A stretch of DNA of 23,415 bases from IMG/VR virus record IMGVR_UViG_2690316068_000003; one strand, 5' to 3'. Position 1 is the first letter of the stretch. Every line of letters starts with the position of its first letter. The DNA is from a virus (taxonomy: Duplodnaviria > Heunggongvirae > Uroviricota > Caudoviricetes). The position numbers and the translations under genes were made by a program. A model generated the notes under the pieces. It ran no database searches. It was given only the letters and a program-made list of their open reading frames with translations, and had not been told where the DNA came from. Below are positions 3,011 through 23,415 of the stretch, piece after piece.

Positions 3011-3865
3011 ATGGCAAAAAAAGTTTCAAAATTCTTTCGTATCGGCGTTGAGGGTGACACCTGTGACGGGCGTGTCATCAGTGCGCAGGATATTCAGGAA
3101 ATGGCCGAAACCTTTGACCCGCGCGTCTATGGTTGCCGCATTAACCTGGAACATCTGCGCGGCATCCTGCCTGACGGTATTTTTAAACGTTATGGCGATG
3201 TGGTCGAACTGAAGGCCGAAAAGATTGACGATGATTCGGCGCTGAAAGGCAAATGGGCGCTGTTTGCGAAAATCACCCCGACCGATGACCTTATCGCGAT
3301 GAACAAGGCCGCGCAGAAGGTCTATACCTCAATGGAAATTCAGCCGAACTTTGCCAACACCGGCAAATGTTATCTGGTGGGGCTGGCCGTCACCGATGAC
3401 CCGGCAAGCCTCGGCACGGAATACCTGGAATTCTGCCGCACGGCAAAACACAACCCCCTGAATCGCTTCAAATTAAGCCCTGAAAACCTGATTTCAGTGG
3501 CAACGCCTGTTGAGCTGGAATTTGAAGACCTGCCTGAAACCGTGTTCACCGCCCTGACCGAAAAGGTGAAGTCCATTTTTGGCCGCAAACAGGCCAGCGA
3601 TGATGCCCGTCTGAATGACGTGCATGAAGCGGTGACCGCTGTTGCTGAACATGTGCAGGAAAAACTGAGCGCCACTGAGCAGCGCCTCGCTGAGATGGAA
3701 ACCGCCTTTTCTGCACTTAAGCAGGAGGTGACTGACAGGGCGGATGAAACCAGCCAGGCATTCACCCGCCTGAAAAACAGTCTCGACCACACCGAAAGTC
3801 TGACCCAGCAGCGCCGCAGCAAGGCCACCGGTGGTGGCGGTGACGCCCTGATGACGAACTGCTGA
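3011..3865 (+). CDS. O: Capsid scaffolding protein, P2 gpO-like, 284 aa
   Basis: Start set at ATG 3011 (MAKKVSKFF...) rather than the track ATG at 2945, which has GGAGG directly abutting it. AGGA lies 11 nt upstream of 3011. The length matches P2 O as recalled. Confidence 0.9.
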   Translation: MAKKVSKFFRIGVEGDTCDGRVISAQDIQEMAETFDPRVYGCRINLEHLRGILPDGIFKRYGDVVELKAEKIDDDSALKGKWALFAKITPTDDLIAMNKAAQKVYTSMEIQPNFANTGKCYLVGLAVTDDPASLGTEYLEFCRTAKHNPLNRFKLSPENLISVATPVELEFEDLPETVFTALTEKVKSIFGRKQASDDARLNDVHEAVTAVAEHVQEKLSATEQRLAEMETAFSALKQEVTDRADETSQAFTRLKNSLDHTESLTQQRRSKATGGGGDALMTNC

Positions 3866-14750: not shown

Positions 14751-15344
14751 ATGTTTACTAAGCGACGATTAAAAAATATTAATTGGGAGGCAAGTTCAGT
14801 GATTCTTGCTATGGTTCTCTTTGCTGGAAATATATTTTATACAAATCATCGTGATGATATAAGCATGGAGGCTGAGAGAGACAGTATCAGAACAATGTTT
14901 GCATATGAAATCGCTAATAACCATCGCGCTCTCACCTTTCTTGATAAAACGAGAAATATTGGCTTTGACGAAAATTCGGAGCATTTTGTTGGCGAGCCTT
15001 TTGCCATTAATGTCAAATCATTAGGAGGGCCTCGCTTACAGGTTGCATTAAACCAGACTGATAAAGTTTTTAAAGCCTACTTCAGTGAATTAAGTAAACT
15101 TGATAAAGAGGATGTTACTCTTCTTATGGACTATTACCATGAGCAAAGCATCCTGCTGGAGTGTGTAAAATCTACGTTACAGAAGATGAAAAGCAATAAT
15201 GATATTAAAGTTGATATTGATGGTTACTTATTAGAAGAACACTTCATGAATGAGTTTAATCTTTCTAATATTTTGCTTAAACGCTATAGCCATTTGTTGT
15301 CACAACACCTCAAAAAACCTGAAACAAAAGATTTACATAATTGA
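14751..15344 (+). CDS. Hypothetical membrane-anchored protein (197 aa), cargo gene in the G-FI accessory slot; candidate phage-exclusion/defence protein
   Basis: ATG 14751 with AAGGTG 4 nt upstream. Sampled 60-nt lines give 25-40% GC against about 60% in FI. Basic N-terminus (KRRLK) followed by one hydrophobic helix (SSVILAMVLFAGNIFY), then a charged, probably helical domain of about 165 aa with no motif I recognise. Confidence 0.7.
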   Translation: MFTKRRLKNINWEASSVILAMVLFAGNIFYTNHRDDISMEAERDSIRTMFAYEIANNHRALTFLDKTRNIGFDENSEHFVGEPFAINVKSLGGPRLQVALNQTDKVFKAYFSELSKLDKEDVTLLMDYYHEQSILLECVKSTLQKMKSNNDIKVDIDGYLLEEHFMNEFNLSNILLKRYSHLLSQHLKKPETKDLHN

Positions 15345-15550
15345 TGATCTGCTAATGGTTATTCATGGGATAACTATGTTTTATATGTAATCCAACTCAG
15401 ATGAATTATTGATTCTGGATAATAACCGCAGAGCGGCATATACCCTGACAGGCAAATGTCCGCTTCTTGCTCAAAGCAGACTGTCAGATTTGATAACTTT
15501 TGGGTTATGTAAATTGTCAGGCGGAAAATGAGTGAGTACAAATCAGGACA

Positions 15551-15577
15551 GGCGGGCGAATTGCCCGCCTTTTCTTT
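15551..15577 (+). terminator. Rho-independent terminator downstream of the cargo ORF
   Basis: GGCGGGC (15551-15557), loop GAATT, GCCCGCC (15563-15569), then TTTTCTTT. Confidence 0.6.
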
Positions 15578-15673
15578 ATCTGTTGTTTCATCCACTGACC
15601 AGCCAGGTCAAATAGCGTCTTATGCTCTGCACAACAGAAAATAGTTGCACCCATTAACCACGGAGTTAAACGG
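15578..15673 (+). promoter_or_regulatory. Region upstream of FI expected to carry the late promoter (P2 P_F equivalent)
   Basis: Positional inference from P2 operon structure. I could not identify a perfect TGT-N12-ACA box. GGAG at 15662-15665 serves as the FI RBS. Confidence 0.3.
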
Positions 15674-20813: not shown

Positions 20814-21976
20814 TGCTGGATGCGCTGACATTTGATGCAGGCAGTACGCTGACGCCGGATTACATGCTGATGCTCGACAGCAGGGATATTACCGGCAATA
20901 TCAGTGACCGTCTGATGAGCATGACCCTGACGGATAACCGGGGCTTTGAGGCTGACCAGCTTGATATTGAACTGAACGATGCCGACGGGCAGGTCGGGCT
21001 GCCGGTTCGTGGCGCTGTCCTGACGGTGTATATCGGCTGGAAAGGTTTTGCCCTGGTATGCAAAGGGAAATTCACCGTTGATGAGGTTGAACACCGGGGC
21101 GCACCGGATGTGGTTACCATCCGCGCCCGGAGTGCAGATTTCCGCGGGACGCTCAATTCCCGCCGTGAAGGTTCCTGGCATGACACCACGCTCGGTGCGA
21201 TTGTTGAGGCGATAGCCTCCCGTAACAGGCTGGAAGCCAGTGTCGCTCCGTCACTGGCCGGAATTAAAATCCCGCACATCGACCAGTCGCAGGAGTCTGA
21301 TGCGAAATTCCTGACCCGTCTTGCAGAACGCAACGGCGGTGAGGTGTCGGTAAAAATGGGAAAACTGTTGTTTCTCAAAGCGGGGCAGGGGGTGACGGCC
21401 AGCGGTAAAAAAATCCCGCAGGTCACCATCACCCGCAGCGACGGCGACCGTCATCATTTTGCGATTGCTGACCGTGGAGCCTATACCGGCGTTACGGCAA
21501 AGTGGTTACACACCAAAGACCCGAAGCCACAAAAGCAGAAGGTAAAACTGAAACGCAAAAAGAAAGAAAAACACCTGCGCGCACTGGAGCACCCGAAAGC
21601 AAAACCGGTCACGCAGAAGAAAGCGCCAAAAGTACCGGAAGCGCGCGAAGGTGAATACATGGCCGGTGAGGCTGACAACGTTTTTGCACTGACCACGGTA
21701 TATGCCACGAAAGCACAGGCCATGCGCGCCGCTCAGGCGAAGTGGGATAAACTGCAACGGGGTGTAGCGGAGTTCTCCATCAGTCTGGCTACTGGTCGGG
21801 CAGATATTTACACGGAAACGCCGGTCAAAGTGTCAGGCTTTAAGCGCGTCATAGACGAGCAGGACTGGACAATCACTAAGGTGACACATTTTCTGAATAA
21901 TAGCGGCTTCACGACGTCCTTGGAGCTTGAGGTCAGGCTTTCTGATGTGGAGTACGAAACCGAAGATGATGAGTGA
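20813..21976 (+). CDS. D: Tail protein / late control protein, P2 gpD-like, 387 aa
   Basis: P2 order and length. Contains a lysine-rich low-complexity linker. Confidence 0.92.
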   Translation: MLDALTFDAGSTLTPDYMLMLDSRDITGNISDRLMSMTLTDNRGFEADQLDIELNDADGQVGLPVRGAVLTVYIGWKGFALVCKGKFTVDEVEHRGAPDVVTIRARSADFRGTLNSRREGSWHDTTLGAIVEAIASRNRLEASVAPSLAGIKIPHIDQSQESDAKFLTRLAERNGGEVSVKMGKLLFLKAGQGVTASGKKIPQVTITRSDGDRHHFAIADRGAYTGVTAKWLHTKDPKPQKQKVKLKRKKKEKHLRALEHPKAKPVTQKKAPKVPEAREGEYMAGEADNVFALTTVYATKAQAMRAAQAKWDKLQRGVAEFSISLATGRADIYTETPVKVSGFKRVIDEQDWTITKVTHFLNNSGFTTSLELEVRLSDVEYETEDDE

Positions 21977-21994
21977 TGTTTTTGTTTTATCTGT

Positions 21995-22023
21995 TTGTTT
22001 TATAAGAATAAATTAACTAAAAT
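21995..22023 (+). promoter_or_regulatory. Putative sigma70 promoter of ogr
   Basis: TTGTTT at 21995-22000, a 17-bp spacer, then TAAAAT at 22018-22023. RBS GAAGAGG at 22042-22049 precedes ATG 22058. Called by eye. Confidence 0.3.
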
Positions 22024-22057
22024 GGCACCATCAACAAAACCGGAAGAGGTGCTCGCG

Positions 22058-22276
22058 ATGTTTCATTGTCCTTTATGCCAGCATGCCGCACATGCGCGTA
22101 CAAGTCGCTATATCACTGACACGACAAAAGAGCGTTATCACCAGTGCCAGAACGTGAATTGCAGCGCCACGTTCATCACTTATGAGTCGGTACAGCGATA
22201 CATCGTGAAGCCGGGAGAAGTCCACGCCGTAAGGCCGCACCCGTTGCCGTCAGGGCAGCAAATTATGTGGATGTGA
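22058..22276 (+). CDS. ogr: Late-gene transcriptional activator Ogr (Cys4 zinc-finger protein), 72 aa
   Basis: MFHCPLCQHAAHARTSRYITDTTKERYHQCQNVNCSATF... matches P2 Ogr as I recall it, with CxxC...CxxxxC zinc ligands. The track ORF is extended upstream; the true start is ATG 22058. Confidence 0.93.
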   Translation: MFHCPLCQHAAHARTSRYITDTTKERYHQCQNVNCSATFITYESVQRYIVKPGEVHAVRPHPLPSGQQIMWM

Positions 22277-22286
22277 TCACAAAAAT

Positions 22287-22314
22287 AGCCCCTCAGTTGA
22301 GGGGCTTTATTTAT
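22287..22314 (+). terminator. Rho-independent terminator after ogr
   Basis: AGCCCCTC (22287-22294), loop AGTT, GAGGGGCT (22299-22306), then TTATTTAT. Confidence 0.65.
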
Positions 22315-22319
22315 GGTCG

Positions 22320-22338
22320 ATGTGGACGCTATGTGGAC
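22320..22338 (+). repeat. Two direct repeats ATGTGGAC spaced 11 bp apart; candidate integrase arm-type binding sites of the att arm
   Basis: ATGTGGAC at 22320-22327 and 22331-22338, the second extending to TGTGGACA. This resembles the P2 Int arm-site consensus as I recall it (TGTGGACA). Lies between ogr and the chromosomal junction, where P2 attP sits. Confidence 0.4.
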
Positions 22339-22344
22339 AGTGCT

Positions 22345-22366
22345 TGATATAAATCCATTTATATCA
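22345..22366. repeat. Perfect 10-bp inverted repeat with a 2-bp spacer (22-bp AT-rich palindrome)
   Basis: TGATATAAAT-CC-ATTTATATCA. The palindrome is read directly from the sequence; its function (core-type Int, Cox or IHF-type site) is inferred. Confidence 0.5.
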
Positions 22367-22404
22367 TCAGGTTAGGTGCTTTTTTATGACACCATCCCTG
22401 TCTT

Positions 22405-22431
22405 CCCCCACATGATGTGGGGGTTTTTTTT
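22405..22431 (+). terminator. Strong rho-independent terminator, probably the cpxP/CpxQ 3' terminator at the prophage-chromosome junction
   Basis: CCCCCACAT (22405-22413), G, ATGTGGGGG (22415-22423), then eight T. Lies 82 bp upstream of fieF, matching my recollection of the native cpxP-fieF spacing. Confidence 0.7.
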
Positions 22432-22512
22432 ATCCTCAATTTGCCTGCTGCTTAATGCATTGCAGATGATTTGCTTCCGTTATACTACCGTCAGTTGATA
22501 GCGGGAGTATTT

Positions 22513-23415
22513 ATGAATCAATCTTATGGACGGCTGGTCAGTCGGGCGGCGATTGCTGCGACGGCGATGGCTTCGCTGCTATTGCTGATTAAAATTTTTG
22601 CATGGTGGTATACCGGGTCGGTGAGTATTCTCGCCGCGCTGGTGGATTCGCTGGTGGATATCGGCGCGTCGTTGACGAATTTACTGGTGGTGCGATATTC
22701 CCTGCAACCTGCCGACGATAATCACTCGTTTGGTCACGGTAAAGCTGAGTCCCTCGCGGCGCTGGCGCAAAGTATGTTTATCTCCGGTTCGGCACTATTC
22801 CTGTTTTTGACGGGTATTCAACATCTGGTATCTCCAACACCGATGACAGATCCAGGCGTCGGGGTTATCGTGACAATTGTGGCGCTAATTTGTACGATTA
22901 TCCTTGTCTCGTTTCAGCGTTGGGTGGTGCGCCGGACGCAAAGCCAGGCGGTGCGGGCTGATATGCTACATTACCAGTCTGATGTTATGATGAACGGCGC
23001 AATTCTGCTGGCGCTGGGGTTGTCCTGGTACGGCTGGCATCGCGCCGATGCTCTGTTTGCATTGGGGATCGGCATCTATATTTTATATAGCGCGTTACGC
23101 ATGGGATATGAGGCGGTACAGTCATTACTGGATCGCGCATTGCCTGATGAGGAACGGCAAGAAATTATTGATATCGTGACTTCCTGGCCGGGTGTTAGCG
23201 GCGCTCACGATCTTCGCACGCGGCAGTCAGGGCCGACCCGCTTTATTCAGATTCATTTGGAAATGGAAGACTCTCTGCCTTTGGTTCAGGCACATATGGT
23301 GGCGGATCAGGTAGAGCAGGCTATTTTACGGCGTTTTCCGGGATCGGATGTGATTATCCATCAGGACCCCTGTTCCGTCGTACCCAGGGAGGGTAAACGG
23401 TCTATGCTTTCATAA
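22513..23415 (+). CDS. fieF: Cation-diffusion-facilitator family Fe(II)/Zn(II) efflux transporter FieF (YiiP), 300 aa, chromosomal
   Basis: [54 protein letters not shown]... matches E. coli FieF as recalled. The track ORF begins at an upstream TTG; the true start is ATG 22513. Typical chromosomal composition. Confidence 0.93.

Follow-up and report, generated by a model that had tools for sequence, protein, structure and literature searches.

The question raised by this locus is where precisely a P2-like prophage gives way to host DNA upstream of fieF, and what becomes of the small RNA CpxQ, in whose sequence the junction falls. The DNA analysed here (the window) is the whole stretch of 23,415 nucleotides of IMG/VR record IMGVR_UViG_2690316068_000003, to which all positions refer unless another record is named. 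A first-pass annotation had proposed that the prophage abuts the terminator of CpxQ and had integrated between cpxP and fieF, and this is borne out by alignment to Escherichia coli K-12 and by the gene order in the lysogens MY732 and Z1323HEC0477.

Positions 1-22387 (+ strand) hold the right-hand two thirds of a P2-like prophage of the WPhi type (Peduovirus), as judged from the order of open reading frames and from similarity to annotated prophages. A portal gene cut by the window edge is followed by terminase, capsid, lysis, baseplate and tail-fibre genes and by those for sheath, tube, tape measure, D and ogr, after which comes the P arm of an attachment site; this order agrees with that of the annotated prophages of MY732 and Z1323HEC0477. 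The closest complete genome is that of Z1323HEC0477 (NZ_CP148323.1), which shows 99.5% identity to window positions 54-23415 over 23.4 kb, and positions 21995-22434 are 98.2% identical to phage WPhi (AY135739). Two open reading frames were noticed between the tail-fibre assembly and sheath genes, at 14751-15344 (+) and 15374-15595 (-), an interval which presumably is the Z/fun cargo hotspot position of P2. Their products, of 197 and 73 amino acids, match phrog_3829 (over the full length) and phrog_11095, respectively, both of unknown function, and neither gave a match in Pfam or PADLOC.

The last phage gene before the junction is the late-gene activator ogr (22058-22276, +), identified by the Pfam Ogr_Delta zinc finger (E = 1.1e-21) and annotated as ogr or ogrK in homologous records. 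It is followed by a terminator called on both strands at 22287-22306 (8 pairs, 6 of them G-C, in the terminator scan). Two direct repeats, ATGTGGAC-GCT-ATGTGGACA (22320-22339, +), fit the published arm consensus of P2-type integrases, tgTGGaCa (PMC3448106), and were classified as arm-type sites. The attP of WPhi has these repeats too, and at attL a further pair is placed between the core and int. Between repeats and core a putative IHF-like site, TATCATCAGGTTA (22362-22374, +), was read by eye; it agrees at 12 of 13 positions with the IHF consensus WATCAANNNNTTR. The letters 22367-22387 are phage P-arm DNA, of which 22374-22387 is unrelated to CpxQ nt 1-14. The CpxQ segment had at first been drawn at 22367-22431; positions 22388-22431 are indeed the 3' part of CpxQ, and the start had been set 21 nt too far to the left. 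In strain Z142-6 (NZ_CP159689.1, 4057300-4058700; locus L082) a P2-like prophage ends beside the 3' end of pflB. It resembles the window only as far as about 22367, some 21 nt short of the core, so the arm and IHF regions are common to phages with differing cores.

Homology to bacterial chromosomes starts at 22388, and from there rightward it was matched in 5426 of 5426 complete E. coli genomes. The order in K-12 is cpxR, cpxP, the 58-nt ncRNA cpxQ (NC_000913, 4106330-4106387) and, 81 nt on, fieF. Window positions 22388-22431, read from the sequence as GACACCATCCCTGTCTTCCCCCACATG-ATGTGGGGG-T8 and written out as GACACCATCCCTGTCTTCCCCCACATGATGTGGGGG followed by eight T, correspond to K-12 cpxQ nt 15-58 with 43 of 44 letters identical, the sole mismatch being the base in the terminator loop, A in the window and C in K-12. 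From the 3' part of CpxQ the homology to K-12 runs unbroken through the spacer into fieF, and together with the 43/44 identity to the annotated cpxQ this excludes a chance match. The native cpxP-fieF spacer (22435-22512, +) is unaltered host DNA, collinear with positions 1892-1969 of the K-12 locus (L001) and matched by all of the 5426 complete E. coli genomes. The complete fieF gene, encoding a metal exporter of the CDF family, follows at 22513-23415 (+; 300 codons plus stop, reaching the window end); its translation begins MNQSYGRLV, and fieF is annotated beneath the match in every genome.

Within the CpxQ segment, both the terminator scan and folding revealed a Rho-independent terminator at 22405-22431 (+), CCCCCACAT-G-ATGTGGGGG plus T8, in which the arms CCCCCACAT and ATGTGGGGG form a stem at 22405-22423 of 8-9 bp, 8 pairs being called by the scan, with a loop of 3, followed by T8. 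The RNA of the whole 44 nt (22388-22431) folds with -16.5 kcal/mol and z = -2.9 against dinucleotide shuffles. A Rho-independent hairpin with a U-run is the Hfq-binding kind of module, and the copy in the window has it at 22405-22431. The strong terminator upstream of fieF had thus been recognised correctly from the letters; its distance, then given as 82 bp, is 81 nt between the T-run and the fieF ATG at 22513, equal to that in K-12.

The segment of identity between the attachment sites, the core, comprises 47 bp, GACACCATCCCTGTCTTCCCCCACATGATGTGGGGGTTTTTTTTATC (22388-22434, +), that is, CpxQ nt 15-58 plus three nucleotides (ATC), so the att core does lie inside an sRNA-encoding 3'UTR, as had been suspected. 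The core is identical in the attR of the window, in the attL of MY732, Z1323HEC0477 and M217 and in the attP of WPhi; the attB of K-12 differs from it by the loop base only, and the consensus over attB, attL, attR and attP reads GACACCATCCCTGTCTTCCCCCACATG[A/C]TGTGGGGGTTTTTTTTATC. In IMG/VR contigs and in the alignments of att sites the flanks part exactly at both ends of the core. Since both int and attL lie beyond the window, they were read in related genomes. The chromosome of MY732 reads cpxP, attL, int, C, cox ... D, ogrK, attR, fieF, both prophage ends carrying the 47 bp; int is annotated at attL in Z1323HEC0477 as well, and ogr is the last phage gene at attR. The 47 bp also sit between ogr and int in the genome of the free phage WPhi (AY135739), whose Int carries the Pfam domains Int_N and Phage_integrase. 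Karlsson reportedly gave in 2006 a length of 47 nt for the WPhi core. As the 47 bp are common to attR, attL and attP, the window contains the attR of a prophage of the WPhi type that sits in the cpxP-fieF interval. Three features expected of an attR of WPhi specificity were found, namely the shared core, P2-type arm repeats, and ogr and int at opposite junctions. We hold it to be very probable that 22388-22434 is the attR core of a WPhi-type P2-like prophage, whose integrase recombines it with the identical 3' end of CpxQ. Two findings that would have spoken otherwise were looked for: the segment turned out to match the cpxP 3' region rather than phage DNA alone, and attL stands directly after cpxP in the related lysogens rather than far from it.

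The prophage of the window has the core, the arm repeats and the ogr-core-int layout of WPhi (Peduovirus Wphi, AY135739), the core being identical; it is a mosaic relative of WPhi and not WPhi itself, from which it departs at one base immediately to the left of the core. Phage L-413C has its core in common with WPhi (PMC3448106), and L-413C and fiAA91-ss are grouped with WPhi. The integration site as such is ordinary and was mapped earlier. In the genome paper of E. coli W, a table has the entry 'cpxP-fieF: Wphi1 (P2)' next to P2-like prophages at 'rybB ncRNA' and 'cyaR RNA', a study of O157 describes a 31-kb prophage between cpxP and fieF, and the Salmonella Infantis prophage PhiESI (31.7 kb) lies between the same two genes, at the host locus used by the window prophage. 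Bobay et al. recognised sRNA genes (ryeE/cyaR, ryeB) as phage targets and left some conserved 'intergenic' hotspots unexplained. The literature consulted treats the WPhi site as intergenic, with CpxQ, described in 2016, unmentioned. CpxQ is not named as a target of P2-like phages in the literature searched, and no link to an attachment site was found in the portions of papers on CpxQ and prophages that were available. The addition made here is a modest one: the site coincides with the final 44 nt of CpxQ, and the working terminator is supplied by the phage.

Integration at such a core very probably proceeds as follows. The phage carries a CpxQ 3' part of its own, and its tyrosine integrase would recombine these 47 bp with their host counterpart, the final 44 nt of CpxQ plus 3 nt. 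The cpxP gene would retain its own CpxQ nt 1-14, which include the RNase E site and the 5' pairing region, and these 14 nt of the host would be joined to the sequence-identical 3' part of the phage, yielding a 58-nt CpxQ and a working terminator beside int. The displaced host 3' part would end some 33 kb away, at attR, as an orphan terminator between ogr and fieF.

The sequences at both junctions agree with this scheme. The attL of Z1323HEC0477 reads, in order, the cpxP stop, a 58-nt CpxQ, ATC, phage DNA that includes the other two arm repeats, and int; the full 58-nt CpxQ was found at attL in 4 E. coli lysogens and 1 Citrobacter, so a functional sRNA gene survives integration there. The identity segment spans the 3' end of the RNA gene, and one junction carries the gene intact. 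In the window, 22388-22431 (+) is an orphan, 5'-truncated copy which, aligned to the annotated K-12 cpxQ, comprises nt 15-58 only; without nt 1-14 it has neither the native RNase E processing site nor the 5' pairing region. A functional CpxQ has the full length of about 58 nt, including U7 and C11, and a position directly after the cpxP stop. The window copy lacks the former, and what precedes it is ogr, whereas in related lysogens the attL copy does follow cpxP. In comparison with functional CpxQ, the copy in the window has the same nt 15-58, bar the loop base, and is a gene fragment with no cpxP upstream. The duplicated or chimeric CpxQ anticipated by the first-pass annotation is therefore real in both senses: 5'-truncated at attR, and at attL of full length with a host 5' end and a phage 3' end. 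Judging from the sequences, both the CpxQ sequence and the termination of cpxP should be unaffected by integration, the 3' part of the phage being identical, and the attR terminator, together with that of ogr, would shield fieF from phage transcription, its native 81-nt spacer being kept. We infer that the phage copy has been selected to preserve CpxQ and termination.

CpxQ reportedly entered the literature as an sRNA of the cpxP 3'UTR with the 2016 work of Chao and Vogel and of Grabowicz, and Chao and Vogel are said to have distinguished two seed regions in it. A search of Rfam 15 gave no CpxQ family for either the window or the K-12 cpxQ. It did give matches below threshold to RF02628 (Hrs1, Hfq-regulated sRNA 1) on the minus strand, antisense to CpxQ, at window positions 22387-22431 (31.4 bits) and at 1816-1888 of the K-12 locus L001 (41.4 bits), the gathering score being 56.4; a family model built on the wrong strand of a CpxQ homologue may be what Hrs1 represents.

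The single polymorphic base within the core offers a marker of descent. The loop base of the CpxQ terminator (window 22415; K-12 locus L001, 1872) varies within E. coli and leaves the stem unaffected: A is carried by the phage and by many non-lysogens including the ST131 strain H10, C by K-12. One could take the A of non-lysogens for a scar of past lysogeny; this was rejected, as precise excision restores the host allele and as A fills whole lineages such as ST131, which makes a host polymorphism the simpler account. Among the IMG/VR copies of attL that show the host left flank, A occupies the loop in all of about 20, while the attR copies have A in 20 and C in 3 of 23. Many lysogens among the complete genomes match the loop-C attR query at 100%, and among the 530 full-length matches to the loop-C attL query none was better than one mismatch. 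M217 carries, on a single chromosome, attL with A and attR with C, and so does 51008369SK1. With A in the phage and C in the host, attL with A and attR with C place the strand exchange 5' of core position 28, which is also the limit to which the crossover is resolved.

Such an exchange 5' of the loop means that the cpxP terminator in use at attL is phage-supplied, and in the lysogens of loop-C hosts (attL with A, attR with C) the restored 3' part is indeed phage-derived. By the same reasoning the window terminator, from the loop base rightward, would descend from the displaced terminator of the host cpxP; this is extrapolated to the window from other lysogens, as both alleles would be A here, and it covers the loop base rightward only, the 5' arm of the stem lying outside the marker's resolution. 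The terminator had been called native in the earlier reading: the loop polymorphism upholds this for the 3' part of the attR copy, yet the free phage carries the same 47 bp. This last fact, and the window loop base, which is the phage allele A, would also agree with a crossover at the far right of the 47 bp, by which the window terminator would be phage DNA throughout and cpxP would keep its native terminator. That arrangement predicts the reverse of what is seen, namely host C at attR and phage A at attL, and is contradicted by the lack of any loop-C attL among the 530 genomes; we regard it as hardly credible, and retain an exchange to the left of the loop.

M217, Sanji and 51008369SK1 have a single IS-riddled prophage in common and stand for one integration event; an attR with loop C and a different phage flank in IMG/VR (L037) suggests at least a second. 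The prophage which these three strains have between cpxP and fieF (loci L056, L057 and L058) is strongly degraded, with insertions of IS150, of ISEc22 (IS66 family) and of ISEc12 (IS21 family), its replication gene is split, and an extra 642-bp ORF and IS150 stand between ogrK and attR. At the attL of 51008369SK1 (locus L058, 18457-18503) the 3' stem arm of the CpxQ terminator has GGGG where GGGGG is usual. As M217 has GGGGG with the same prophage, the change is probably confined to the strain or a homopolymer sequencing error.

An inverted repeat, AGACA-CCATCCC-TGTCT, is seen in attB at the core's left end; it coincides with a small predicted hairpin in the fold of the 44 nt. From its sequence, the 7 bp CCATCCC, flanked by the core-type half-sites AGACA and TGTCT, are a candidate for the overlap region of strand exchange, and they would fit both the loop-base marker and the point at which identity ends on the left. 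The other approximately 35 bp of identity are found entirely on the side from which CpxQ and its terminator are rebuilt at attL.

Is this long identity maintained by the need to rebuild the sRNA gene, or is the likeness to CpxQ incidental, the integrase requiring a short symmetric site and the length being a matter of history? Tyrosine integrases need only about 20-30 bp, and the identity between P2 and CyaR is 27 bp, both of which agree with an incidental likeness. Divergent phages bear on this question. They were sought by means of the right flank together with part of the terminator 3' arm and the T-run (GGGTTTTTT), and P2-like phages were found whose gpD is 48% and whose Ogr is 36-46% identical to those of the window, with an Int 82-86% identical to that of WPhi. 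Their core is the same from position 3 (CACCATCCC...) to its end, and their left flanks are unrelated, with 25-74% identity, although the search patterns themselves account for part of the perfect agreement of the core among attP variants, an ascertainment effect which also speaks for incidental likeness. Against it stand the cores of these GGGTTTTTT-pattern loci, kept from position 3 through the terminator next to such flanks; the end of identity exactly at the terminator plus 3 nt, on the attL side where the gene is rebuilt; and a lineage with an Int only 56% identical to that of WPhi, which has kept the hairpin by means of a compensated stem variant. We find an incidental likeness improbable in view of these points, and favour selection for rebuilding CpxQ.

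The lineage last mentioned is represented by locus L072 (about 30-102), where an attL is preceded on the left by cpxP-like sequence; its terminator has the variant stem CCCCGCCATGATGGCGGGG, changed in sequence with the hairpin retained. The CpxQ target is thus shared by integrases with just 67% and 56% identity to that of WPhi. The divergent phages (loci L073, L074 and L076) suggest that the int-att module moves between phage backbones. In the WPhi-type phages, comparison of the phage left flank with the 5' 14 nt of CpxQ gave no convincing homology; the left flank ggcTTCCTTagcgCACC of locus L076 (about 3540-3600) has the hexamer TTCCTT in common with the 5' region of CpxQ, perhaps by chance. 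At locus L075 (1-111) an Int 99% identical to that of WPhi is accompanied by a core from position 3 and by an odd flank, tccagtttgttacatgcggaatatctt; being neither cpxP nor the usual phage arm, it may mark a secondary-site junction or a rearrangement.

The first-pass annotation had further supposed that integration could couple the prophage to envelope-stress regulation, and this supposition is not supported: the promoter scan found no sigma-70-like promoter in 21900-22600, which leaves the orphan copy with no promoter-like site before it, and the strong ogr terminator stands 82 nt upstream of the fragment. We considered, nevertheless, that the CpxQ fragment, at attR or in the replicating phage, is a truncated Hfq-binding sRNA or decoy, or is opposed by an antisense RNA at attL, with the Cpx response modulated as a result. 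The fragment does retain an internal C/U-rich single-stranded stretch, the hairpin and U8. On the minus strand at attL no terminator-like site occurs between the int stop codon and the core, so that read-through from the repressor-int side would be antisense to CpxQ, and a preprint reports that CpxQ rises in lambda infection, when it features prominently among Hfq chimeras and is joined to phage RNAs (bioRxiv 10.1101/2024.10.31.621285). Besides the want of a promoter and the ogr terminator, the missing nt 1-14 weigh against such an RNA, as they include C11, needed for pairing with cfa (PMC6755755), and U7, needed for pairing with nhaB (PMC10250213); moreover, the literature searched links CpxQ to no P2-like phage. 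Modulation by any of these routes appears to us quite improbable. Its specific form, in which nt 15-58 of the phage act as an Hfq-binding variant or decoy devoid of seed 1, or meet antisense RNA at attL, and so tune the Cpx stress response of the host, we consider very improbable; if true, P2-like phages in about one seventh of the complete E. coli genomes would tune the inner-membrane stress response governed by Cpx in their hosts.

The junction is widespread. The phage-attR-fieF arrangement, scored over at least 80% of window 22280-22520, occurs in 790 of the 5426 complete E. coli genomes (14.6%), and a 107-nt attR query was matched in 786 of them. Outside E. coli, Citrobacter meridianamericanus shows cpxR, cpxP, the full CpxQ, the core, the arm repeats and int in that order, and the 47 bp recur in IMG/VR contigs whose flanks are of the Salmonella type. 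In that Salmonella-flank lineage both phage flanks differ from those of the window, and its Int is about 67% identical to WPhi Int; PhiESI is assumed by us to belong to it. A strict attR pattern had no match among the GTDB species representatives, and a looser attL pattern matched only Citrobacter meridianamericanus and one Escherichia sp., the outcome being that species representatives are of little use for prevalence. CpxQ is, according to a review, exceptionally conserved among enterobacteria, above any other part of cpxP (PMC9438474), and being conserved more than cpxP it would offer a stable landing site, which would account for a cpxP-fieF hotspot common to Escherichia, Salmonella and Citrobacter.

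Two other kinds of known systems are close to the one presented here. P2 itself has its attachment site at the 3' end of CyaR (RyeE), where K-12 carries the remnant PR-X, likewise with a P2-type integrase and arm sites; in K-12 the P2-like homology starts at CyaR nt 61 of 87 and so takes in the last 27 nt with the terminator, and the arm repeats and ogrK come next. CyaR as a P2 target goes back to Wassarman 2001, as cited in PMC3603311. In both cases the core is the terminator end of an Hfq-dependent sRNA. The two differ in that CyaR is a free-standing sRNA gene and CpxQ is cut from an mRNA 3'UTR, and in the length of identity, 27 bp for CyaR and P2 vs 47 bp for CpxQ and WPhi. The sRNA, furthermore, adjoins the ogr-proximal junction in the former and the int-proximal one in the latter, and the orientation of the core relative to the phage map is therefore opposite. 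The second kind comprises the integrators into tRNA and tmRNA genes (186, HP1, Fels-2 and SopEPhi), in which, as here, the 3' copy of the phage rebuilds the gene and leaves a truncated duplicate (PMC3448106); the P2-like members of this kind mostly have an integrase of the 186 type (PMC3448106). Unlike these cases, the target described here is a regulatory sRNA which doubles as the terminator of a protein-coding gene.

The current understanding of phage integration is unchanged by these results. They add CpxQ to the sRNA attachment sites of P2-like phages, beside CyaR/RyeE, which was known, and RybB, which was tabulated, and in the literature searched it is the first case pointed out with an sRNA cut from an mRNA 3'UTR. 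In practical terms, about 15% of E. coli genomes should be expected to give two cpxQ-like matches, of which the one adjacent to cpxP is the gene, and in lysogens RNA-seq and RIL-seq reads that fall within the 44 nt at the CpxQ 3' end are of ambiguous origin. For the lysogens themselves it means that the cpxP terminator in use is phage DNA.
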